Assembly (NCBI GenBank): GCA_945860415.1
Contig: CAMAQA010000002.1
Span: 10,193 to 74,192 of the forward strand
DNA length: 64,000 bases
Direction of reading: 5' to 3'
Source of the DNA: Bacteriovorax stolpii
GTDB taxonomy: Bacteria > Bdellovibrionota > UBA1018
How positions within the stretch are numbered: the first letter of the stretch is position 1; each line of letters opens with the position of its first letter. The notes beneath the pieces are model-generated. The model ran no database searches, was not told the DNA's origin, and saw only the letters and a list, made by a program, of their open reading frames with translations. The position numbers and the translations under genes are program-made. Positions 21,215-39,887 of the stretch are shown piece after piece.

Positions 21215-21478
21215 TCAGATCACTTCGAAGCTGTCGGCTTTCAGGACGATCTGTGAGTTTTCATCCTCCTTCCGACCGGTGACGCTTGCATCTGCGCCGG
21301 ACTCGAACGCCTGTTCGATGGTTGATTCGAGGCTGGTGAAAAGTTTCTGTGGAATAAGCACGGAACTCGTTGATCGACCGGACTGAAGTTGAAGGAATCC
21401 GATTTTTTTACCCTTCACTGTGGTGACCACCTTAAACTCAATGACCTTGCCTGAAGACTGAGCGCTCTGTTTTTTCAT
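21215..21478 (-). CDS. small soluble protein (87 aa), translationally coupled to the CDF gene
   Basis: The ATG at 21478 overlaps the CDF stop (ATGA). The sequence MKKQSAQSSGKVIEFKVVTT… is the C-terminal part of the 313-aa track ORF. No known motif. Confidence 0.45.
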   Translation of the reverse strand: MKKQSAQSSGKVIEFKVVTTVKGKKIGFLQLQSGRSTSSVLIPQKLFTSLESTIEQAFESGADASVTGRKEDENSQIVLKADSFEVI

Positions 21479-22125
21479 TGTCCCTCGATTGTAGAAGACT
21501 CGCCTGGTCTCAGGATTTCTACTGACTCTCGGATGATCCCGAACGAGGCCTTGAGTACGAAAGTGGCCACGAGAATCGCAACCAGCACATCGGGCCACCG
21601 GGTTCCTAGGAGGGCCACGAGAGCCGAGGCAGTCAGGAGCCCGGCGTTGGAGATGAGGTCGGCCTTCGAGCAGGTCCACGTCGACTTCATGTTGATGTCG
21701 TCCGACCTGCTCTCTGAGAGAAGCCACATGCAAGTCAGATTGCCGAAGAGAGCCAGCACGCTGAAGGCGCCCATCCATCCCGAGTGAGGCAGAACCGTAG
21801 GACGTAGCAGTCCTCCGAAGCCCGAATCGAAGAGCGCCGACAGGGCCAGCAGAGCGGTCACGCCTCCCTTGGCGAGCGCTGCCCTGGCCTTCCAGTTCAT
21901 GTCCTTGTTGATCGCAATGAGGCCGAGTCCAGTCAGCAGCACATGGCTGAGCAGGTGGATCGCATCTGCGGCCAGTAGATGCGAGTGGGCTTGGGCTGCT
22001 CCCCAGAACTCGGCGATACAAACCACGGCGTTGATCGCCAGCACAGCCATCAGGGTTTTCTGATGGTGCCGTTGGGCCGATGGTTCTCCGTGCAGGAGGT
22101 TCTGGCAGGAATGACAGTCCTTCAT
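21475..22125 (-). CDS. cation diffusion facilitator (CDF) membrane domain without the usual cytoplasmic C-terminal domain
   Basis: Six-TM pattern with CDF-like TM2 (LLAADAIHLLSH) and TM5 (NMKSTWTCSKADLISNAG). ATG 22125 is preferred (MKDCHSCQ…). A GTG at 22152 would lie inside the palindrome. Confidence 0.65.
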   Translation of the reverse strand: MKDCHSCQNLLHGEPSAQRHHQKTLMAVLAINAVVCIAEFWGAAQAHSHLLAADAIHLLSHVLLTGLGLIAINKDMNWKARAALAKGGVTALLALSALFDSGFGGLLRPTVLPHSGWMGAFSVLALFGNLTCMWLLSESRSDDINMKSTWTCSKADLISNAGLLTASALVALLGTRWPDVLVAILVATFVLKASFGIIRESVEILRPGESSTIEGQ

Positions 22126-22146
22126 CTCGTCGAGAACCGTGACATA

Positions 22147-22187
22147 AGCCACCCATTAATGCAATAGCGTTGCATTAATGGGTGGCT
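22147..22187. promoter_or_regulatory. 41-bp perfect palindrome containing candidate Zur-type box A
   Basis: AGCCACCCATTAATGCAA-tagcg-TTGCATTAATGGGTGGCT: 18-nt perfect arms. It is centred in the 82-bp gap between the divergent CDF and COG0523 genes. Confidence 0.6.
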
Positions 22188-22207: not shown

Positions 22208-23419
22208 ATGAAAGATCAGTCTGCGTCAGGGCGCCCATTGCCGGTCACGGTGCTGTCGGGATTTCTCGGTGCTGGAAAAACCACCCTTCTCAATCAGGTG
22301 CTGACGAATCGAGCCGGCATGCGCGTGGCCGTCATCGTCAACGACATGAGCGAGGTCAATATCGACGCCGCCCAGATCAAGGGTGGCTCGGCCATGCTGT
22401 CGCGTCAGGAAGAGCGGCTGGTGGAAATGCAGAACGGCTGCATCTGCTGCACGCTTCGAGAAGACCTTCTGATCGAGGTTGCGAAACTCGCAGAAGAGGG
22501 ACGCTTTGACTACCTCCTGATCGAGTCAACCGGCATCTCGGAGCCTCTTCCTGTGGCCGAAACCTTTCAGTTCGCTGACCCCGCCGGCAGGGTGCTCAAT
22601 GATCTGGCCCGGCTTGACACCATGGTGACCGTCGTGGATGGGCCAAGGTTCCTCAAGGACTACAACGAGGGGGCTTTGCTCCGAGAGCGGAAACTTGCCG
22701 TGGACGAAAAGGATTCGAGAACCATTACCGACCTGTTGGTGGAGCAGGTGGAGTTCGCCAACGTGATCGTGATCAACAAGACGGATCTCATGGGCGGCAT
22801 GCGCATTCGAGAGCTCGAGGGAATTTTGAAGGCTCTCAATCCCGAAGCGACCATCCTCCGAACCAGCTTCGGGCGGATACCGTTGCCCTCCATTCTGGGT
22901 ACCGGACTTTTTGATTTTTCGCGAGCCTCGCTTGCGCCGGGTTGGATGAGGCGCATGCGGGGTGAGCCGTTGAGTGAGGCCGAGGAATACGGAATTTCGA
23001 GCTTTGTTTTTCGTGACCGCCGGCCTTTTCATCCGCAGCGTTGGGCGGATCTCTGTAGTCGGATCTGGCCGGGTGTTCTGCGCTCGAAGGGTTTCATCTA
23101 TTTGGCCTCGCGGCTGGAGCACATCGCCCTGTGGTCGCAGGCGGGCACGGTCTGGTCACTGGGGCCTGCGGGCGCCTGGAGGGCCGCCATTCCGGAAGAG
23201 GCCTGGCCGGATGACGAGTCCACGCGGGCTGCGATCAAGCGCGACTGGCACCCGATTTTCGGAGACCGCCGACAGGAACTCGTCGTGATCGGGGGGCGCG
23301 AGATGAGGCCGGAGCGGATCAGGAGCGATCTTGAACGGGCACTGCTGACGGAAGACGAGGTTGCGCTCGGCCGGTCGCGATGGAAGGGGTTTTCGGATCC
23401 TTTTCCTAAATGGATCTGA
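22208..23419 (+). CDS. COG0523-family GTPase (CobW/ZigA/YeiR-like metallochaperone), copy 1
   Basis: Walker [13 protein letters not shown], metal motif [16 protein letters not shown], and a CobW_C-like tail (RPFHPQR…RSKGF). Confidence 0.9.
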   Translation: MKDQSASGRPLPVTVLSGFLGAGKTTLLNQVLTNRAGMRVAVIVNDMSEVNIDAAQIKGGSAMLSRQEERLVEMQNGCICCTLREDLLIEVAKLAEEGRFDYLLIESTGISEPLPVAETFQFADPAGRVLNDLARLDTMVTVVDGPRFLKDYNEGALLRERKLAVDEKDSRTITDLLVEQVEFANVIVINKTDLMGGMRIRELEGILKALNPEATILRTSFGRIPLPSILGTGLFDFSRASLAPGWMRRMRGEPLSEAEEYGISSFVFRDRRPFHPQRWADLCSRIWPGVLRSKGFIYLASRLEHIALWSQAGTVWSLGPAGAWRAAIPEEAWPDDESTRAAIKRDWHPIFGDRRQELVVIGGREMRPERIRSDLERALLTEDEVALGRSRWKGFSDPFPKWI

Positions 23420-23437
23420 TTCGTTTTTAGTTGTCAT

Positions 23438-23458
23438 TATTGCATTTCAGTTGCAATA
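23438..23458. promoter_or_regulatory. candidate Zur-type box B
   Basis: tatTGCATttcagTTGCAata, 39 nt upstream of the S18 ATG. Confidence 0.5.
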
Positions 23459-23493
23459 AATGGCACCTGTTCGGACGTGATCAAAAGGAGTCA

Positions 23494-23811
23494 ATGATGG
23501 GTAGATTGAATGTGGGTTCTACAGGGGGTCGTGTGGAGCGTGGCGACTGGGAGGACAAGAGTGAGGAACGGCGTAGCGCGCCCCGCATGCGACGCTTTCG
23601 CGCGCCTCCGGATCTGATTTTCGATTACAAGGATGTCGAATCTCTCAAGCCTTTCCTGTCGGAGAGCGGAAAGATTGTTCCGGCGCGGATCAGCCGCCTG
23701 AGCGCCTCCCAACAGCGCAAGCTGACCCAGGAAGTCAAGCGGGCCCGCCAGCTGGCGTTGCTGCCCATCAGTGATCGTCACTCGGGTGGGTCCGGCGGAA
23801 GTCGCTTCTGA
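23494..23811 (+). CDS. rpsR: ribosomal protein S18, cysteine-free variant with atypical N- and C-terminal extensions
   Basis: Core [50 protein letters not shown] matches S18. RBS AAGGAG at 23485-23490. ATG at 23494 or 23497. Confidence 0.8.
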
Positions 23812-24862
23812 GATCAGCCGGGAGCTCCCAGAGTGCGAGCTCTCCGGTGTCGAATCCCACGGCGATCGAGTTTCCAGAGGGATGCCAGGCCATGCATGTG
23901 GCCTGGCTCTCTGCTGCCGAAGTGCCGATGACCATGGGTCGAAGCGCGATGGAGTCCAGGCTCCAGAGCATCCAGCAGCCGTCCGTGCCGATAGTGGCAA
24001 ACTGTCGTGGTGATGCTGGTCTGAACCCGATGTCGACAATGGTCCCGATATGGCCGCCAATCACACGCGGCTGCTGGCCGGCGGGGGTCGCTCGGGTGAA
24101 GTCCCATGACGTGATGGCTTCGCCTCCAGCGGCCAGAAGCTGCGAGCCATCCGGGCTCCACCGCAGCGCTCTGACCTGCCCAGGAAATCCCGACATTCGG
24201 AAGTCATTTCCGGACGAGGTTCGCCAGACGTGCAGCGTCTGGTCTCGGCACCCCGAGGCAATCCACCGTCCGTCTGGACTTACCGACAGTTGAAGCGGAC
24301 TGCCATTCCAGTTGAAGGTTCTCGCGGGCCGCGACGAACCTTGTTTCCAGATCTGAAGTTCAAGGTGAGAAACCGAGATAAAGCTGTCCTGTATGTCACG
24401 CCACTGCAGATCGCAGATGGCGGCGCGCGCGCCCTCGAAGCGACTGACTTCGGTGCCTTCGAGTGAACACCAGGTGATGATCCTGCCGGCTGCGGAAAGA
24501 AACCCACTGCCATCATGCGCCGGGCGGAGCAGCTCCGCGGCGGCCAGGCCCGAAAGCGATGAGCACCACTGAAGGCGGATTTCTCCATCTTCGATGCGCC
24601 AGCAGCGGAGTTCTCCCTTTTTGCTTCCGCGTCCGGATGAAATCACCAGCCCATCACATCCCAGCCATCGGACATCGGTCAGTTCAGTCGCATGCGCAAT
24701 CGTACGCGTGAGCGTCGCGCCGCCATTGAGGTGGACGATTCCGATTCCTCCGGCTGTTTCTCCGATCAGTAGATGGGTGCCGTCCTCACTCCAGTGCAGA
24801 TGGCGAATATAGTCTCCATACTCGATGGAACGGAGTGGATCGATCAAGCGGAGGTCAGACAT
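23768..24862 (-). CDS. WD40-repeat beta-propeller protein, cytoplasmic
   Basis: Repeats such as [20 protein letters not shown] and [13 protein letters not shown]. No signal peptide. The start overlaps the upstream COG0523 stop by 19 nt. Confidence 0.8.
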
Positions 24863-26217
24863 GCACGAAAGCCCTCGTTCAATTCGGCTCGATCCAGGTT
24901 TCTTCCGATGAATACCAGTTGATTGGTCCTCTCTTCGTGATCAAGCCAATCGACCTCCGGGAGACTCTCCACGATCATGTGTACTCCATGAAACACGACT
25001 TTAGAGCTGGATCCGCCCTCGGTGGGTTCTACGTTTAGAACCCCCTTCATTCGGAAGAGATCGGCTCCCCGACTTCTAACCAGATTCGAGATCCAGAAGT
25101 TGAAGATGGGTCTCGAGACGATTCCGGATACCGCGATTCCAACGGACGATACGGTGCTGTCGTGCTCATGGCCCGGGTTGAACTCATGAGAGTCCTCGGG
25201 CTCAAGAGTCGTCCCGGAAGATGTATGAAGCTGCATTTGAAACTCGGACGGATGATGTTGCAGGAAGAGCGTGTATCTGCCGTCTGCAGGAATCTCGAGG
25301 AGGAACTCCTTGGGGCCATTCTTGGAGAGCTCGAGGCTGAAGTGGCAGGGTGACGGAATCAGGGTGGACCCAGGCGCCATGGCGATGGGCTCGTCGGAGA
25401 ATAAGATCATGGCCCGCTCGCGCAGTTTGAGTACCTCGCTGTTCGTCAGCTCGGTCTGGGCGAGAATCGCGATCGATAGCGCCGGGTCTGGCCCCTCTTC
25501 AAGACGAAGAGCATGCACGCCAGCGGGCAGCGCGTAAGATCCGGACCACTCAAACGGATACTCCGGATCGAGGAATGCGGGACGAGTTCGAAGCGCTCGT
25601 TGAAGGTCGAATCCGCCCACGTCGATGACGTTTTGGATCGGGATATTGCATTGAGTGGTTCGCAGGATCCGGGCTGCGCCATTGATCGCCCGTATCCGGC
25701 CTTCGAGCGCAGGAAGGTCGGACTCCGCTACCAGATCCACTTTGTTCAGCAGGATGAGGTCGGCGAAGGCGATCTGTTCCTGGCACTCGTCTGAATCCTC
25801 GATATGCAGTGACAGATGTCTCGAGTCCACGACGGTGACCACGCCGTCGACCTGGTAGGTGGCTTTCATCTCATCGTCGGCCAGGAAGGTCTGAACGACC
25901 GGAGCTGGATCGGCAAGCCCGGTGGTCTCGATGATGATTCGGTCGAATTTGTCCCGCCTCTGAAGGAGGCGTCCCAGGATGCGAATCAGGTCGCCGCGAA
26001 CGGTGCAGCAGATGCATCCGTTGTTCATTTCATGGATCTCTTCCTCGGATGACAGGATTAGTCCGCTGTCGATGCCGATCTCTCCGAACTCGTTTTCGAT
26101 GATGGCGATTCTTTGACCGTGATGCTCGGCGAGGATTCTGTTGAGCAGGGTGGTCTTTCCGGACCCCAGAAACCCGGTCAAGATGGTCAATGGAATTCGA
26201 CTCGTATTTTCACTCAT
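24844..26217 (-). CDS. COG0523-family GTPase, copy 2, with a large insertion between the G-domain and CobW_C
   Basis: GFLGSGKTTLLN, GCICCTVRGDL and NKVDL motifs. About 130 extra residues (…EWSGSYALPAGVHALRLEEGPD… HEFNPGHEHDS) precede the CobW_C-like end. Confidence 0.85.
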   Translation of the reverse strand: MSENTSRIPLTILTGFLGSGKTTLLNRILAEHHGQRIAIIENEFGEIGIDSGLILSSEEEIHEMNNGCICCTVRGDLIRILGRLLQRRDKFDRIIIETTGLADPAPVVQTFLADDEMKATYQVDGVVTVVDSRHLSLHIEDSDECQEQIAFADLILLNKVDLVAESDLPALEGRIRAINGAARILRTTQCNIPIQNVIDVGGFDLQRALRTRPAFLDPEYPFEWSGSYALPAGVHALRLEEGPDPALSIAILAQTELTNSEVLKLRERAMILFSDEPIAMAPGSTLIPSPCHFSLELSKNGPKEFLLEIPADGRYTLFLQHHPSEFQMQLHTSSGTTLEPEDSHEFNPGHEHDSTVSSVGIAVSGIVSRPIFNFWISNLVRSRGADLFRMKGVLNVEPTEGGSSSKVVFHGVHMIVESLPEVDWLDHEERTNQLVFIGRNLDRAELNEGFRACLTSA

Positions 26218-26235: not shown

Positions 26236-27528
26236 TCAGGTGGAATTAAAACGGTGAAATGGCATCGGTAGACGGGGTTGCAGGATACTTCGGGTATCAG
26301 GCTCCGAAAGCGAGAGCAGTCTGGGTTTCGGGCCAAGGACCAGCGCGCGCCGGACTCGGGAAGGAATGGCCTCCGGATCGTGGGTGCACCACACGACGGA
26401 GAGGGCGCGAGACGCCTGGGTGGCCTCGAGTCGACGCACAAGCAGTCCGGCCGTCTCGGCATCGAGGCCTGAAGTCAGTTCATCGCAGAGAAGAATCTCG
26501 GGGCCTGCCGCGATTGCAGAAATCAGCATGGCCTGCTTCTGCTGACCGAAACTGAGTCCTGACAGGGGCTGATGCATTTCAGCTTGGAGCTCAAACGATT
26601 CAAACAGGTTCTCCAGCTCGCCTTCGCTGATTCGAGATCCAATTCGGGCATCCTCCCAGGGAGTGGCGCCGAGAAGGAAGTGTTCGGGATTCTGAAAAGT
26701 CATCATGATCCCGCGAATGCAGCCGCGGAGAGATTCAGTGCCCAGTCGCTTCAGGGTTCCCGAGCTCGGAGGCCGAAGTCCGGCCATCACTCGAAGAAGT
26801 GTGGTTTTCCCAGATCCGCTTGGCCCGAGAAGGGCGAGCCATTCGCCCTGTTGGAGCTCAAGATGGATCTCCGAAAATACTTCCTTTCCGAGAATCTCCA
26901 CGGCGATCCGATCCAGCTCCATCACCAGATCGGGTCTCGATCTGAACTCCATCGGATTCGTCGGGCCGGTCGTACGAAGAGCGCGAGACTCTCTGGCCGT
27001 TTCCGCCCGTCGAAGGCCATAGTCCAGAGTGGAGGCAAGAAGAAGCGAAGTGCACGCATGGGGCGCAGAACTCGGCGCACGAAGCCGAATCGCCGAGAGC
27101 CGGGAGGGGAATGCCTCAACCATGATGGCGCTTCCGGTACAGATGTCCTGAATCAGTTCGTGAAGCCAGGGAGCACTCGACACCCTCCTGACCAGGCGCT
27201 CGGCTCCATCCCGGGTGATGATTCCGGAGATCGCACCCATGAACCCTAATCCGGCGAGCCAGCGATACAGTGTGCCTGGGGCGATCCCTCTGCCGCTGAG
27301 CCAGCTGCCGAGCCAGCTGATCATCGCAATGCCGAACGAAAGTGCTAGAAACAGGTAAGGGGTGCTCGAGTGGCGCTTCGCGGAGCTCGACCCATGACGA
27401 TACGTCCAGGAGGCAGCGAAGAGAAGAAGCGCGATCAGCGGCACGAAGGGGGTGATGTCGTCCGCCGAGAGCGCGGCCAACAGGAGAATACCCGAGGCCG
27501 CGGCAGTGAGAATCATGCCTCGGATCAT
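26236..27528 (-). CDS. fused ECF transporter T-component-like membrane domain plus A-component ATPase (CbiQ/CbiO-like)
   Basis: An N-terminal region of about 190 aa is hydrophobic. It is followed by Walker A GPSGSGKTT, signature LSFGQQKQ and Walker B ILLCDE. The ATG at 27528 overlaps the upstream ORF stop (ATGA). Confidence 0.7.
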   Translation of the reverse strand: MIRGMILTAAASGILLLAALSADDITPFVPLIALLLFAASWTYRHGSSSAKRHSSTPYLFLALSFGIAMISWLGSWLSGRGIAPGTLYRWLAGLGFMGAISGIITRDGAERLVRRVSSAPWLHELIQDICTGSAIMVEAFPSRLSAIRLRAPSSAPHACTSLLLASTLDYGLRRAETARESRALRTTGPTNPMEFRSRPDLVMELDRIAVEILGKEVFSEIHLELQQGEWLALLGPSGSGKTTLLRVMAGLRPPSSGTLKRLGTESLRGCIRGIMMTFQNPEHFLLGATPWEDARIGSRISEGELENLFESFELQAEMHQPLSGLSFGQQKQAMLISAIAAGPEILLCDELTSGLDAETAGLLVRRLEATQASRALSVVWCTHDPEAIPSRVRRALVLGPKPRLLSLSEPDTRSILQPRLPMPFHRFNST

Positions 27529-27695
27529 GGGACGCGTGCGCCCCGTGACATCAGGCGTGACCACCCCGCACCCATCAGAACGCCACAGAGCAACAGGAGC
27601 AGTCCGAAAACAAATGGCGACTCATCGCTCGGAGCGGCCGTTCCGCCCACGATCTCGGGTAGTATTCCGGCGAGTCGGGCGTGATGGTCGAACAC
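27525..27695 (-). CDS. small membrane protein, CbiN-like C-terminal half
   Basis: …APSDESPFVFGLLLLLCGVLMGAGW resembles the PSGE-plus-TM end of CbiN. A GTG at 27695 lies 4 nt after the cbiM stop. The stop overlaps the next ATG. Confidence 0.4.
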   Translation of the reverse strand: MFDHHARLAGILPEIVGGTAAPSDESPFVFGLLLLLCGVLMGAGWSRLMSRGARVP

Positions 27696-27699
27696 CGCC

Positions 27700-28263
27700 T
27701 CATCCAGGCCCGTGTAGCTGAGTGACAGCCGGGGTGTCTGGCGAGGAGGATTGAAATGCGATGGCGAGAACTGCAGCATCTGCGACGTAGACAGCCATGC
27801 TGGAAACTGCCAATGCGGTAGCGATCCCCCAGAGAGTCCTTCGACCGGGTCGAAGGAAAGTGGCGACAGTGCGGCTCAGGAAAAAGGCGAGCCCCGGACC
27901 GATCACTCCAAGCGTGAGGATATTTGCCCCCAGGCTGGTCAGCCCGCCGTGCCCCATTCCCACTGCCTGAATGGCAAGGATCAATGCGACGGGCAGGATG
28001 ACGTGCAGGGGGCCCACCAGAAGGGCAAGTAAACCCGTCATGCACAGGTGCGAACTGATTCCGAAGAGCGGCATAGGAATCGGAAGCACCGTGCAGGCGA
28101 AGACCAGTGCCGATCCTACCGTGAGAAGGTTTCTGAACGAAGGATCGCCGGTCGTCGTCAGGGTGTGCTTCATCCGGATCGAGCCCAGGAGAACGGCGGG
28201 TGCCGCCAGCGAGGTCAGCGCCAGGGCATGTGCGGCAGGCAGGATTCCCTCGGAAATGTGCAT
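27700..28263 (-). CDS. cbiM: ECF transporter substrate-capture component, CbiM/NikM family
   Basis: Hallmark N-terminus MHISEGIL and a conserved internal His (GISSHLCMTG). Polytopic. Short for the family at 187 aa. Confidence 0.8.
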   Translation of the reverse strand: MHISEGILPAAHALALTSLAAPAVLLGSIRMKHTLTTTGDPSFRNLLTVGSALVFACTVLPIPMPLFGISSHLCMTGLLALLVGPLHVILPVALILAIQAVGMGHGGLTSLGANILTLGVIGPGLAFFLSRTVATFLRPGRRTLWGIATALAVSSMAVYVADAAVLAIAFQSSSPDTPAVTQLHGPG

Positions 28264-28281: not shown

Positions 28282-28452
28282 CTATTTTTTGGAGCTGCTC
28301 GGGCTCTTGCCTTCGACAAAGAGGACGTGCTTTCGAACCTTGGGGTCATATTTCTTCTTCTGCAGCTTGTCGGTCGTCTTCTGCTTGTTTTTGGTCGTGT
28401 AGTAGCAAAAGCCGGTTCCTGCGGTTGACACCAGACGAACTTTCTCTCTCAT
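28282..28452 (-). CDS. rpmG: ribosomal protein L33, non-zinc-ribbon (C-) form. 56 aa, absent from the supplied ORF track
   Basis: Manual translation gives [56 protein letters not shown]. This matches the L33 pattern (xRLVSxAGTGxxYxTxKNK…KYDPxVRKHV). Confidence 0.85.
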
Positions 28453-28470: not shown

Positions 28471-28491
28471 TATCGCAATTCAGTTGCGTTA
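28471..28491. promoter_or_regulatory. candidate Zur-type box C
   Basis: tatCGCAAttcagTTGCGtta, 22 nt upstream of the rpmG ATG (minus strand). Confidence 0.5.
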
Positions 28492-28513: not shown

Positions 28514-28741
28514 TCAATGGGCATTTTTTGAATCGTTCAGTGCGCGTTTGAACCATTCCAGGACTCGAGAGTAGTGGGCCTCGCCATAGAGTTCTCGAAA
28601 TCGCCTTGTGTCCTGCAAGGCAGTGCTCTGGAGCAGTCGGACCCTGGCCTGCAGGTAGTCGCGAGTCAGGGGTATTCCGCACTTGAGGGTGATGCACTCC
28701 TTCCATTCTTCGAACGATGTCGGAAGTTCAGTCTTTTTCAT
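28514..28741 (-). CDS. hypothetical protein (75 aa)
   Basis: The ATG overlaps the upstream stop (ATGA at 28738-28741). Helical and charged. No known motif. Confidence 0.45.
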   Translation of the reverse strand: MKKTELPTSFEEWKECITLKCGIPLTRDYLQARVRLLQSTALQDTRRFRELYGEAHYSRVLEWFKRALNDSKNAH

Positions 28742-29322
28742 GATTTCCTCGGGTTTAGGTTACGCCACATTTGCGACCCATCGATCGGTCGGACCATTGG
28801 CCTGAGTTCGAGGTCACGCCAGAAATGGCGCAGGTTGATCGCTCGTCGCAGTGAGGTGGGCCGATGACGATTGTGGAACTTTTCTTCGATCCACCGTTCG
28901 TAGTGCTCCATCCATCCAATGAACCGAGCAAAGGTTGGAAGGGCGCTTTGATACTCGGCGGCGGAGGGCGCGGCCGCCAGCTCTGGACTCTTGAGAAGAC
29001 ACCACGGATCCTGGAGGTCCAGACCACGGGCAAAGCGCGGCCTGGGTCGGTGGCGCGACCAGAACCAGAGGCCTTGTCCAGGGACGTGCAGGGTGATGCC
29101 AAACGCCCAGAGACAAACGTCAAAACCGAGCTGTGGGCGACGATCATCCACGTAAGCGGCAGAGCTGGACCATTCGACCTGCTTTTCGAGTTTCCTCAAT
29201 CCAAAGAGGAGTAAGAGATCGGCTTCGGGCGCTTTGATGTCGTGGCCCCAGAGGCAAAACTGATGGTCCCAGTTTCTCAGTCGGTCAGCGTTTGAGAGGG
29301 TGGAAGTGGCCAGAGGGTCCAA
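28738..29322 (-). CDS. hypothetical Trp-rich protein (194 aa)
   Basis: ORF directly downstream of box D. No signal peptide and no known motif. Confidence 0.5.
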   Translation of the reverse strand: MDPLATSTLSNADRLRNWDHQFCLWGHDIKAPEADLLLLFGLRKLEKQVEWSSSAAYVDDRRPQLGFDVCLWAFGITLHVPGQGLWFWSRHRPRPRFARGLDLQDPWCLLKSPELAAAPSAAEYQSALPTFARFIGWMEHYERWIEEKFHNRHRPTSLRRAINLRHFWRDLELRPMVRPIDGSQMWRNLNPRKS

Positions 29323-29341: not shown

Positions 29342-29362
29342 AGATGCAACTCAGTTGCAATA
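29342..29362. promoter_or_regulatory. candidate Zur-type box D
   Basis: agaTGCAActcagTTGCAata, 23 nt upstream of ATG 29322 (minus strand). Confidence 0.55.
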
Positions 29363-35998: not shown

Positions 35999-36019
35999 TA
36001 GTGCAACTCTGATGCATTT
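35999..36019. promoter_or_regulatory. candidate Zur-type box E2
   Basis: tagTGCAActctgATGCAttt. Its centre is 23 bp from that of E1, and it lies 69 nt upstream of the Fur-family gene. Confidence 0.45.
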
Positions 36020-36084: not shown

Positions 36085-36582
36085 ATGAGCAAGGAAGGAC
36101 AGTCTCGCGGGGTGCGCCGTGTGCAAGTTCGCAAGAATACAGGGACAGTTCATGGTCGGCATGAGGCCGAGCTCTCATCGGCCCTTGAGGCCATCGAGCG
36201 AGCGGGCATGCGCCGTACCCAGCCTCGAATCGCGATCTTGAAGGCATTGATTGCCGAGCACGGACCTTTCAGTGTCGACGAGCTTCGTGAGTTCTCTCTT
36301 CTTGATGGAGTCGATCGGGTGACCGTTTACCGAGTCTTGACGGCATTTGAAGAGCTGGGCCTGGTGCGCCGGTGTGAGTTCGGCGACGGCACCTCGCGCT
36401 ACGAGTTCGCGGGTGGTGGCCACCACCACCATCACGTCATCTGCAAAAAATGCCGCAAAACGGAAAACGTCGACGAGTGCATTCCTGACGCGATCATCCA
36501 GCGCGTTCGCAAGCTGGGCTACGACGACGTCTCGCACACCCTCGAGTTTTTCGGGGTGTGCAAGACCTGTCGTGCGGCTTGA
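36085..36582 (+). CDS. zur: Fur-family metalloregulator, probably Zur
   Basis: Winged-helix motifs RRTQPRIAILKAL and RVTVYRVL, a His-run (HHHHH), and two CxxC pairs (CKKC, CKTC). The Zur assignment comes from context only. Confidence 0.75.
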   Translation: MSKEGQSRGVRRVQVRKNTGTVHGRHEAELSSALEAIERAGMRRTQPRIAILKALIAEHGPFSVDELREFSLLDGVDRVTVYRVLTAFEELGLVRRCEFGDGTSRYEFAGGGHHHHHVICKKCRKTENVDECIPDAIIQRVRKLGYDDVSHTLEFFGVCKTCRAA

Positions 36583-39866: not shown

Positions 39867-39887
39867 TAATGCAACTATTTTGCACTG
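39867..39887. promoter_or_regulatory. candidate Zur-type box F
   Basis: taaTGCAActattTTGCActg, 33 nt upstream of the TBDR-2 ATG, in the divergent gap. Confidence 0.5.

Follow-up and report, generated by a model that had tools for sequence, protein, structure and literature searches.

What does a cytoplasmic WD40-repeat protein contribute when its gene begins inside the end of a gene for a COG0523 GTPase? We addressed this question for a 64,000-nucleotide (nt) stretch of Bacteriovorax stolpii DNA (assembly GCA_945860415.1, contig CAMAQA010000002.1, positions 10,193 to 74,192 of the forward strand; hereafter the window), in which COG0523 copy 2, an insertion-bearing GTPase gene, overlaps the gene of a WD40 protein. 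An earlier note, made from the sequence alone, had proposed that the two form a functional unit, with the WD40 protein as a client, an adaptor or a scaffold that docks the chaperone to the transporter encoded upstream. Functional coupling of the two genes is strongly supported by our analysis, and we favour, at somewhat better than an even chance, the reading that the pair is the local copy of an ancient and widespread module, in which a COG0523 subfamily-5 GTPase metallochaperone and a dedicated cytoplasmic WD40 partner are switched on under zinc starvation.

Recurrence of the overlapping COG0523 and WD40 genes

Scanning one genome per GTDB species with the inserted segment of the GTPase alone confirmed that at least 571 species genomes, drawn from many phyla, have the insert-bearing form, and 80 loci among the matches listed were examined. 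A WD40 orthologue lay directly downstream at 72 of these 80 loci (family hidden Markov model (HMM), E values of 1e-39 to 1e-122); the other eight comprised two loci that ended too early, one with a fused or frameshifted open reading frame (ORF), two with the WD40 gene elsewhere in the locus and three with none. The WD40-bearing loci came from some twelve phyla of bacteria (Acidobacteriota, Gemmatimonadota, Chloroflexota, Planctomycetota and Poribacteria among them) and from one Thaumarchaeota metagenome-assembled genome (MAG). In the reverse direction, every WD40 homologue whose context was looked up had a COG0523 gene directly upstream and overlapping it. The idea of a functional unit, against which a lack of co-occurrence in other genomes would have spoken, is decisively strengthened by this recurrence.

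The overlapping start was also conserved at the nucleotide level across loci. In the window the junction reads ...GAGGGCTTTCGTGC-ATG-TCTGACCTCCGCT-TGA, so that the WD40 ATG (24862) stands 19 nt inside the COG0523 gene, exactly as the earlier note had it, and a Shine-Dalgarno-like GAGGG precedes this ATG by 9 nt. The modal overlap in related loci was 13 nt, from which the window departs solely on account of two additional residues at the C-terminus of its GTPase. A GC-ATG-TCT start inside Ala-Cys codons was found in the window, Poribacteria, Ktedonobacter, Oligoflexia and the Thaumarchaeota MAG, with GTG taking its place in Gloeobacter. The start arrangement of the window, GCATGTCT, recurred in loci L004, L007 and L025, the close variants CAATGTCT and GCATGCCT occurred in L010, L057 and L073, and GCGTGTCT in L008. 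An alternative TTG start for the WD40 gene, which would give a TTGA overlap, was rejected because the N-termini of the family align from the ATG and the GC-ATG-T start is kept elsewhere.

COG0523 copy 2 retained the three motifs ascribed to it earlier, GxxGxGKT, CxCC and NKxD, all located within its 457-aa ORF: GFLGSGKT (Walker A) at residues 15-22, the metal-binding GCICC of the G domain at residues 67-71 and NKVD at residues 158-161, in addition to ETTG at residues 97-100. Pfam placed cobW at residues 9-185 (1.7e-60) and CobW_C (PF07683) at residues 357-454 (2e-18; 66.5 bits, cutoff 22). Every invariant column of the 78-sequence family alignment was kept, and C68, C70 and C71 of GCICC were invariant among the 78 relatives. 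Searching with the whole protein returned more than 8000 matches, the best 120 of which were all 435-473 aa long (all but one 446-473) and 52-57% identical at 96-100% query coverage, from sources including Gloeobacter, Gemmatimonadota, Chloroflexaceae, Acidobacteriota, Myxococcota, Vampirovibrio and Competibacter. NCBIfam matches were all far under their cutoffs, with 210.3 bits for the YjiA type (NF008578, cutoff 361), 184.7 bits for CobW (TIGR02475, second best, cutoff 332.1) and 180.5 bits for ZigA (NF038288, G domain only, cutoff 600). The only solved relative, E. coli YjiA (PDB 1nij and 4ixm), has a G domain and a CobW_C that superpose with the model of the window protein (Foldseek E 9e-21; phmmer 1.5e-47 over residues 8-215), but YjiA is 318 aa long and has neither the insert nor a WD40 neighbour.

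The WD40 protein matched Pfam PF00400 (67.6 bits, cutoff 27) and many propeller families, and its best PDB sequence matches were WD40 proteins such as 2ymu and 5yzv; full-length relatives were few and about 30% identical. No hydrophobic signal-like stretch was found at its N-terminus (maximum 12-residue Kyte-Doolittle mean, 1.46), in agreement with the earlier description of a 364-aa protein lacking a signal peptide. Against NCBIfam it gave one weak sub-threshold match only (19 bits, cutoff 400), which was not AztD.

Clustering of such genes was published in 2009: prokaryotic COG0523 subfamily 5 clusters with WD40 genes, znuABC, HoxN, SapB and COG1402, and human CBWD/ZNG1 and yeast YNR029c fall in that clade too (Haas et al. 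2009, BMC Genomics 10:470; PMC2770081). The pair is a further member of that cluster and not novel itself, and the novelty implied by the earlier note, given the published clustering with WD40, znuABC, HoxN and Zur sites, was overstated. The supplements of the paper list glr0534, all1751 and SYNW2482, bll7768 and CBWD1 are further named members of the subfamily, and Zur sites were predicted 5' of znuCBA-COG0523-5-WD40 operons in Bradyrhizobium, Nitrobacter and Rhodopseudomonas (PMC2770081); Anabaena all1751, a listed subfamily-5 member, belongs to an experimental Zur regulon (PMC6103462). The window shares with these systems the gene order and the presence of importer neighbours, which there are of the zinc or HoxN/NicO type, and it has a putative Zur site upstream. 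For Gloeobacter glr0534, the G. morelensis orthologue (P0166, 449 aa) has the insert and lies in the order NicO-COG0523(449)-WD40(354), and COG0523 copy 2 was 54% identical over 98% of its length to this protein in its glr0534-like context. The paper reports clustering only, not the insert, the overlapping start or a WD40 role, and the window differs from its cases in an importer of the ECF/CbiM type and an operon that starts with an L33 paralogue. In the literature searched, the 2009 report of clustering was all that concerned the WD40 partner of ZNG1-like bacterial chaperones (PMC2770081), with neither a function for it nor any experimental follow-up found.

Around the pair, the 80 loci had ZnuA in 30, a CbiM-type gene in 10 and NicO in 3, many had no transporter within 5-6 kb, and a Fur gene was present in 16; B12, hydrogenase and urease genes were not seen beside the pair. 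The orders were znuA-ABC...-cobW(333)-WD40 in L001, fur-cobW(330)-WD40 in L004 and CbiM-ABC-99 aa-COG0523(458)-WD40(373)-277 aa in L007, and a 326-kb contig had CbiM-ABC-97/99 aa-COG0523-WD40 as in L007, plus a Fur gene. In L005 and L006 a truncated cobW, confirmed by HMM, lay 5' of the WD40 gene. A 651-aa ORF of an Acidobacteriales MAG (L071, 5311-7266) was considered as a natural COG0523-WD40 fusion; it joins a COG0523 protein without its last ~35 CobW_C residues to the N-terminal ~200 residues of a WD40 protein on a low-quality MAG contig, is probably the product of a deletion or frameshift, and was not used as evidence.

A small protein of about 85-100 aa (p99) was encoded directly 5' of the insert-bearing COG0523 gene in 40 of the 80 loci. 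Its motif VTEL-C-TE[PE]GCPP[IL]ETVIA is strongly conserved and it had no match in Pfam; the module may thus have p99 as its third component.

The predicted beta-sandwich insert

COG0523 copy 2 carries an insert of about 128 residues (216-343) between the G domain and CobW_C. Its bounds came from alignment with two COG0523 proteins of 330 and 333 aa, encoded beside WD40 genes, whose G domain and CobW_C are nearly the same as those of the long form. The earlier estimate of roughly 130 extra residues at about 25167-25572 was essentially right, the alignment giving 25189 as the lower bound. The His-rich patch HEFNPGHEHDS does directly follow the insert on its 3' side, and H350, H352 and D353 within it were invariant; but the short forms also have the patch, as HQHD, so that this H-x-H-D element belongs to the linker of the subfamily and not strictly to the end of the insert. 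Nor did the implied link between insertion and WD40 protein hold, since short, insert-less COG0523 proteins have the same WD40 partner; because the WD40 protein accompanies both forms of the GTPase, the insert is not its docking site.

Modelled with AlphaFold2 on 78 homologues, the insert reached block-mean predicted local distance difference test (pLDDT) values of about 88-98 over most of its length and had 8-9 strands arranged as a sandwich, plus a single helix (259-273); modelled alone, it had a pLDDT of 84.6 and a predicted template modelling score of 0.78. Among the 78 sequences E219, P221, F222, E223, W224, G242, P243, D244, H321 and E325 were invariant, and the Glu, Asp and His residues of this set are candidate metal ligands. 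In Foldseek searches of PDB, the full-length model found only YjiA and other P-loop GTPases and nothing for the insert, and the insert alone found nothing significant (best E 0.06, template modelling score ≤0.39). Matches to jelly-roll capsids, PA14/Flo adhesins and GOLD domains were among the insignificant ones, and no fold family is claimed. The full-length model also matched Shulin, the Tetrahymena outer-dynein-arm regulator (6zyx_Y / 6zyw_Y; E 4e-08), presumably through a COG0523-like GTPase domain in Shulin.

The HMM search that the earlier note had called for gave a divided result: the insert sequence had no credible match in Pfam, NCBIfam or PDB sequences, but its own profile found it in other metal-trafficking proteins. 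Against 1.84 billion cluster representatives, the profile matched 589 proteins at E ≤ 1e-3, 276 of them at E ≤ 1e-10. We scanned the best 147 of the 589, and 72 had CobW_C. Eight were ZnuA proteins whose match to the ZnuA model is split by the domain (P0262, P0269 and P0331, for example), four were CusB/HlyD-type adaptors with the domain at the N-terminus (among them P0307, P0349 and P0353), two were ZIP transporters (one is P0303), and there was one each of a CDF protein with the domain at the C-terminus (P0265, Paenibacillus solisilvae), CbtA (P0284) and a TPR protein. Stand-alone copies with lipoprotein signals had His/Asp-rich tracts on both sides (P0334, P0364, P0381, P0299). Across these architectures the signature was [PA][FW]EW-G ... 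G-x-Y ... [GY][PA]D[PA]-x-M ... TEH-x-P-x-EF, usually with a His-rich tail behind it, and in the other metal-trafficking proteins His-rich tracts mostly flanked the domain.

These matches suggest that the insert is a mobile metal-handling domain. It is the part most worth following, with a confident predicted fold, no annotation and a presence in many classes of metal-trafficking protein; recurring in zinc importers, exporters, periplasmic binding proteins and chaperones, it could be a general element of metal hand-off, and its description would improve the annotation of many ZnuA, ZIP and CDF variants. A more far-reaching reading, which we hold tentatively and at somewhat less than an even chance, is that the insert is the COG0523 copy of an undescribed mobile metal-binding beta-sandwich, a common hand-off or capture module that was spliced, on either side of the membrane, into metal-trafficking proteins of at least seven kinds (COG0523, ZnuA, ZIP, CDF, CusB-like, CbtA and secreted lipoproteins), and that in the WD40 protein the bacterial ZNG1-like chaperone has an obligate subunit for presenting clients.

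Zinc context of the operon

The earlier note had placed ECF-type genes just upstream of the pair, and a CbiM gene and a gene for a fused transmembrane and ABC protein (TM-ABC) are indeed present there on the same strand (Table 1). Between the TM-ABC stop and the COG0523 start is a gap of 18 nt that contains GGAG, and TM-ABC homologues of 471-476 aa occupied the same position in L007, L010 and the 326-kb contig. The first gene of the operon encodes what we take, from recognition of the sequence pattern, to be a ribosomal protein L33 paralogue; used as a phmmer query, it picked out ORFs at two of the related loci, L072 and L086.

A Zur-like palindromic box stands before this first gene. The pattern AAYGCAA-N5-TTGCRTT, derived from the perfect palindrome CCCATTAATGCAATAGCGTTGCATTAATGGG in the gap that separates a CDF gene from the ZigA-like COG0523 copy 1, had five matches in the window against 0.34 expected. 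The same box occurred five to six times in each of the closest loci, L007 and L010, 5' of operons for ribosomal paralogues, CbiM and TonB receptors. It resembles the TGCAA-N5-TTGCA-type, beta-proteobacterial Zur sites in the Haas supplement (PMC2770081). A Fur-family gene behind one of the boxes is a candidate for the Zur of the island. COG0523 proteins of the Zur-regulated ZigA/YciC/ZagA type are induced by zinc starvation, as copy 2 would be, and a ZigA-like copy lies nearby in the window; copy 2 differs from that type in the architecture of its linker and in having a WD40 partner.

Between 23300 and 29500, no sigma-70-like promoter site was found on either strand, which is weak negative evidence, and the two terminator-like sites, fewer than in shuffled sequences, were both on the plus (non-coding) strand. 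A Zur-like box heading the operon, with no promoter- or terminator-like site found on the coding strand inside it, is in keeping with a functional unit of the two genes. The most economical reading would be a single Zur-controlled transcript, rpmG2-cbiM-(small TM ORF)-TM/ABC-COG0523-WD40, and the region as a whole looks like a Zur-regulon island. A link to zinc is suggested by the boxes, the Cys-less (C-minus) L33 and S18 paralogues, the ZigA-like copy, the Fur-family gene and the ZnuA genes in 30 of the 80 loci.

Table 1 Positions of the gene pair, its motifs and domains, and neighbouring features (window coordinates unless a related locus is named)
Feature	Position	Strand	Description
WD40-repeat protein, cytoplasmic	23768-24862	minus	364 aa; probable divergent member of the COG0523-linked WD40 family
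COG0523 copy 2 GTPase	24844-26217	minus	457 aa; long, insert-bearing form, probably of the WD40-linked subfamily 5
COG0523/WD40 overlap	24844-24862	minus	19 nt; WD40 ATG inside the C-terminal Ala-Cys codons (GC-ATG-T)
His patch HEFNPGHEHDS	25156-25188	minus	residues 344-354
Inserted beta-sandwich domain (predicted)	25189-25572	minus	residues 216-343
NKVD	25735-25746		COG0523 copy 2
ETTG	25918-25929		COG0523 copy 2
GCICC	26005-26019		COG0523 copy 2, G domain
GFLGSGKT	26152-26175		COG0523 copy 2, Walker A
Fused membrane domain and ABC ATPase (TM-ABC)	26236-27564	minus	442 aa; Pfam ABC_tran at residues 231-364
CbiM with the PDGLE-like piece	27525-28263	minus	piece follows CbiM in a different frame
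CbiM-type ECF S component	27700-28263	minus	187 aa; Pfam CbiM 3.9e-30
Presumed ribosomal protein L33 paralogue, Cys-less (C-minus)	28282-28452	minus	56 aa, below the 80-aa minimum of the ORF list; first operon gene, directly 5' of CbiM
Zur-like palindromic box ATCGCAATTCAGTTGCGTT	28472-28490		20-38 nt 5' of the first operon gene (L33 paralogue-CbiM)
Box	22158-22176		ZigA-like/CDF
Box	29343-29361		unknown 194-aa ORF
Box	36000-36018		Fur-family gene
Box	39868-39886		673-aa ORF
Short CDF-family gene	21475-22152	minus	225 aa; Cation_efflux only
ZigA-like COG0523 copy 1	22208-23419		NCBIfam 586 bits; 0.4-2 kb away
Ribosomal protein S18 paralogue (C-minus)	23431-23811	plus	Pfam 8.9e-21; after ZigA-like COG0523 copy 1
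Unknown ORF	28738-29322	minus	194 aa; Zur-like box just upstream
Fur-family regulator	36085-36582	plus	Pfam FUR 7.9e-22; two-mismatch box ~70 nt upstream
p99, locus L007	8689-8988		85-100-aa small protein
p99, locus L010	5016-5351		85-100-aa small protein
p99, locus L025	5076-5333		85-100-aa small protein

Readings of the WD40 partner, and neighbouring genes

In the module that we favour, ribosomes finishing the chaperone would reinitiate on the WD40 gene at the overlap, favouring near-equal production of the two proteins, and the GTPase would bind zinc at its CxCC motif. The insert and the His patch would serve as an accessory module for metal capture and hand-off, the one also carried by ZnuA, ZIP, CDF, CusB-like and CbtA proteins. 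The propeller would bind the GTPase and, in an adaptor or regulatory role, present one or more client proteins to it or tune its hydrolysis of GTP. To this role we give a roughly even chance; other G3E GTPases have accessory subunits of a comparable kind, UreF/UreH in the case of UreG and HypA in that of HypB, and it is by this analogy that we favour it.

A specific protein partner is also a feature of ZNG1 (CBWD), likewise a COG0523 GTPase with CxCC, which has an N-terminal CPELVP motif and METAP1 as its client; papers in Cell and Cell Reports in 2022 reportedly describe the metallation of METAP1 by ZNG1. The window GTPase differs in its N-terminus, MSENTSRIPLTILTG, which has no CPELVP-type motif, no METAP1-type client is encoded near the pair, and ZNG1 is not known to have an operon-encoded WD40 partner. 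The WD40 protein is an obvious bait for clients or regulators of bacterial COG0523 zinc chaperones because it is strictly coupled to the chaperone, occurs in hundreds of species and accompanies the same subfamily as eukaryotic ZNG1.

Several points weigh against the module as we read it, some general and others peculiar to the window. The interaction of the WD40 protein with the GTPase, metal binding and expression are all predictions from sequence; the assignment of the boxes to Zur is putative, based on likeness to beta-proteobacterial Zur sites and on context; and, because CbiM, NicO and CbtA are classically nickel/cobalt families, some lineages could use a metal that is not zinc. Of the 77 sequences from which we defined the COG0523-linked WD40 family, only one diverges more than the WD40 protein of the window, which keeps M223, G225, W253, D254, P260, P265 and H271 but differs at 14 of the 43 columns that are at least 90% conserved. 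The CbiM of the window is truncated: in tblastn its match to the 323-aa CbiM-PDGLE fusions of L007 and L010 spans residues 1-169 and no more. The p99 gene was absent from the window by tblastn.

From the divergence of the WD40 protein, the truncated CbiM and the missing p99 gene it follows that the window copy may be partly decayed. Taken further, this would make the pair a still-open relic, outside the constraints of its family, in an operon decaying in this genome, which we regard as unlikely. Identity of the window WD40 protein to the family has a median of 25.6%, compared with 38.7% for the other members; the window lacks, along with p99, the gene for a 277-aa protein (p277) that related loci have beside the pair; and the 3' end of the WD40 gene runs into the convergent S18 ORF. 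A PDGLE-like piece (YTGLDEAVFDH...FVFGLLLLLCGVLMGAGW) does follow the window CbiM, out of frame with it, and this break may be a deletion, a frameshift or a sequencing error. However, both ORFs of the pair are intact, the GTPase keeps all residues that are invariant in its 78 relatives, the Shine-Dalgarno sequence and the overlapping start are preserved, and all proteins of this lineage appear divergent from their database relatives.

About as unlikely is the proposal that the WD40 protein is a scaffold docking the chaperone to the cytoplasmic face of the upstream importer, here ECF/CbiM, for direct hand-over of metal. The pair is very often found beside importers, and in the window, L007 and L010 it follows an ABC gene in one operon. 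The neighbouring importers nevertheless belong to unrelated classes (type II ABC, ECF and NicO/HoxN), which tells against a single docking surface being conserved, and at many loci no importer is encoded within 5-6 kb. The surface motifs specific to the WD40 family (GQD, WkGS.L..WSPdG, M-x-G-Y-x-x-K and WD-c-s-G-x-GP-x-G-x-x-P) were conserved whatever the transporter type. The occurrence of the WD40 protein with ZnuABC, ECF/CbiM, NicO or no importer argues against transporter-specific docking, and the suggestion of docking to the ECF transporter in particular fared poorly, CbiM-type genes being found at a third as many loci as ZnuA.

Less likely again is that the WD40 protein is a client, or a second metallochaperone, that receives zinc from the GTPase by analogy with AztD, a periplasmic beta-propeller zinc metallochaperone encoded in zinc-uptake operons, often near CobW-family genes (PMC6689063). 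Beta-propellers such as AztD can carry zinc and pass it on (PMC6689063), and the WD40 gene is strictly coupled one-to-one with a metallochaperone. AztD, however, is secreted and has defined zinc sites, whereas the window WD40 protein has no signal peptide, no AztD-type match in NCBIfam and no conserved ligand cluster. Residues conserved to at least 90% in the WD40 family were mostly Trp, Gly, Pro and Asp and the structural GH/WD-type repeat positions; no conserved Cys/His cluster was found in the family, the only recurrent His (H57 and H271) falling at GH positions. The lack of such a cluster makes a role as metal acceptor less likely, and the WD40 protein is probably not one. A client without an enzymatic domain, made one-to-one with its chaperone in hundreds of species, would also be unusual.

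Equally improbable is a module serving cobalt or nickel in the manner of CobW or HypB, with the WD40 protein assisting a Co/Ni enzyme: the neighbouring CbiM, NicO/HoxN and CbtA are annotated as Co/Ni transporters and CobW is the second-best NCBIfam match, but that match, like all others, is far below its cutoff, Zur-type boxes occur in the window together with zinc-independent ribosomal paralogues and genes of the ZigA-like and Fur-family kinds, ZnuA is the commonest transporter neighbour, no B12, hydrogenase or urease genes were seen beside the pair, and Zur sites (PMC2770081) and Zur-regulon membership (PMC6103462) are published for subfamily 5.

Other genes of the window stand beside the boxes or the pair. 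The 225-aa CDF gene, in which no C-terminal dimerisation domain was detected, is divergent from the ZigA-like gene and shares the perfect palindromic box with it, and a gene of an efflux family under a zinc-starvation operator is odd. The S18 ORF, as called, converges on the WD40 gene and overlaps its last 44 nt. The 194-aa ORF had no match in Pfam or NCBIfam, and homologues of it were found near COG0523-WD40 modules in 13 of the 80 related loci (Poribacteria, Acidobacteria and the Thaumarchaeota MAG).

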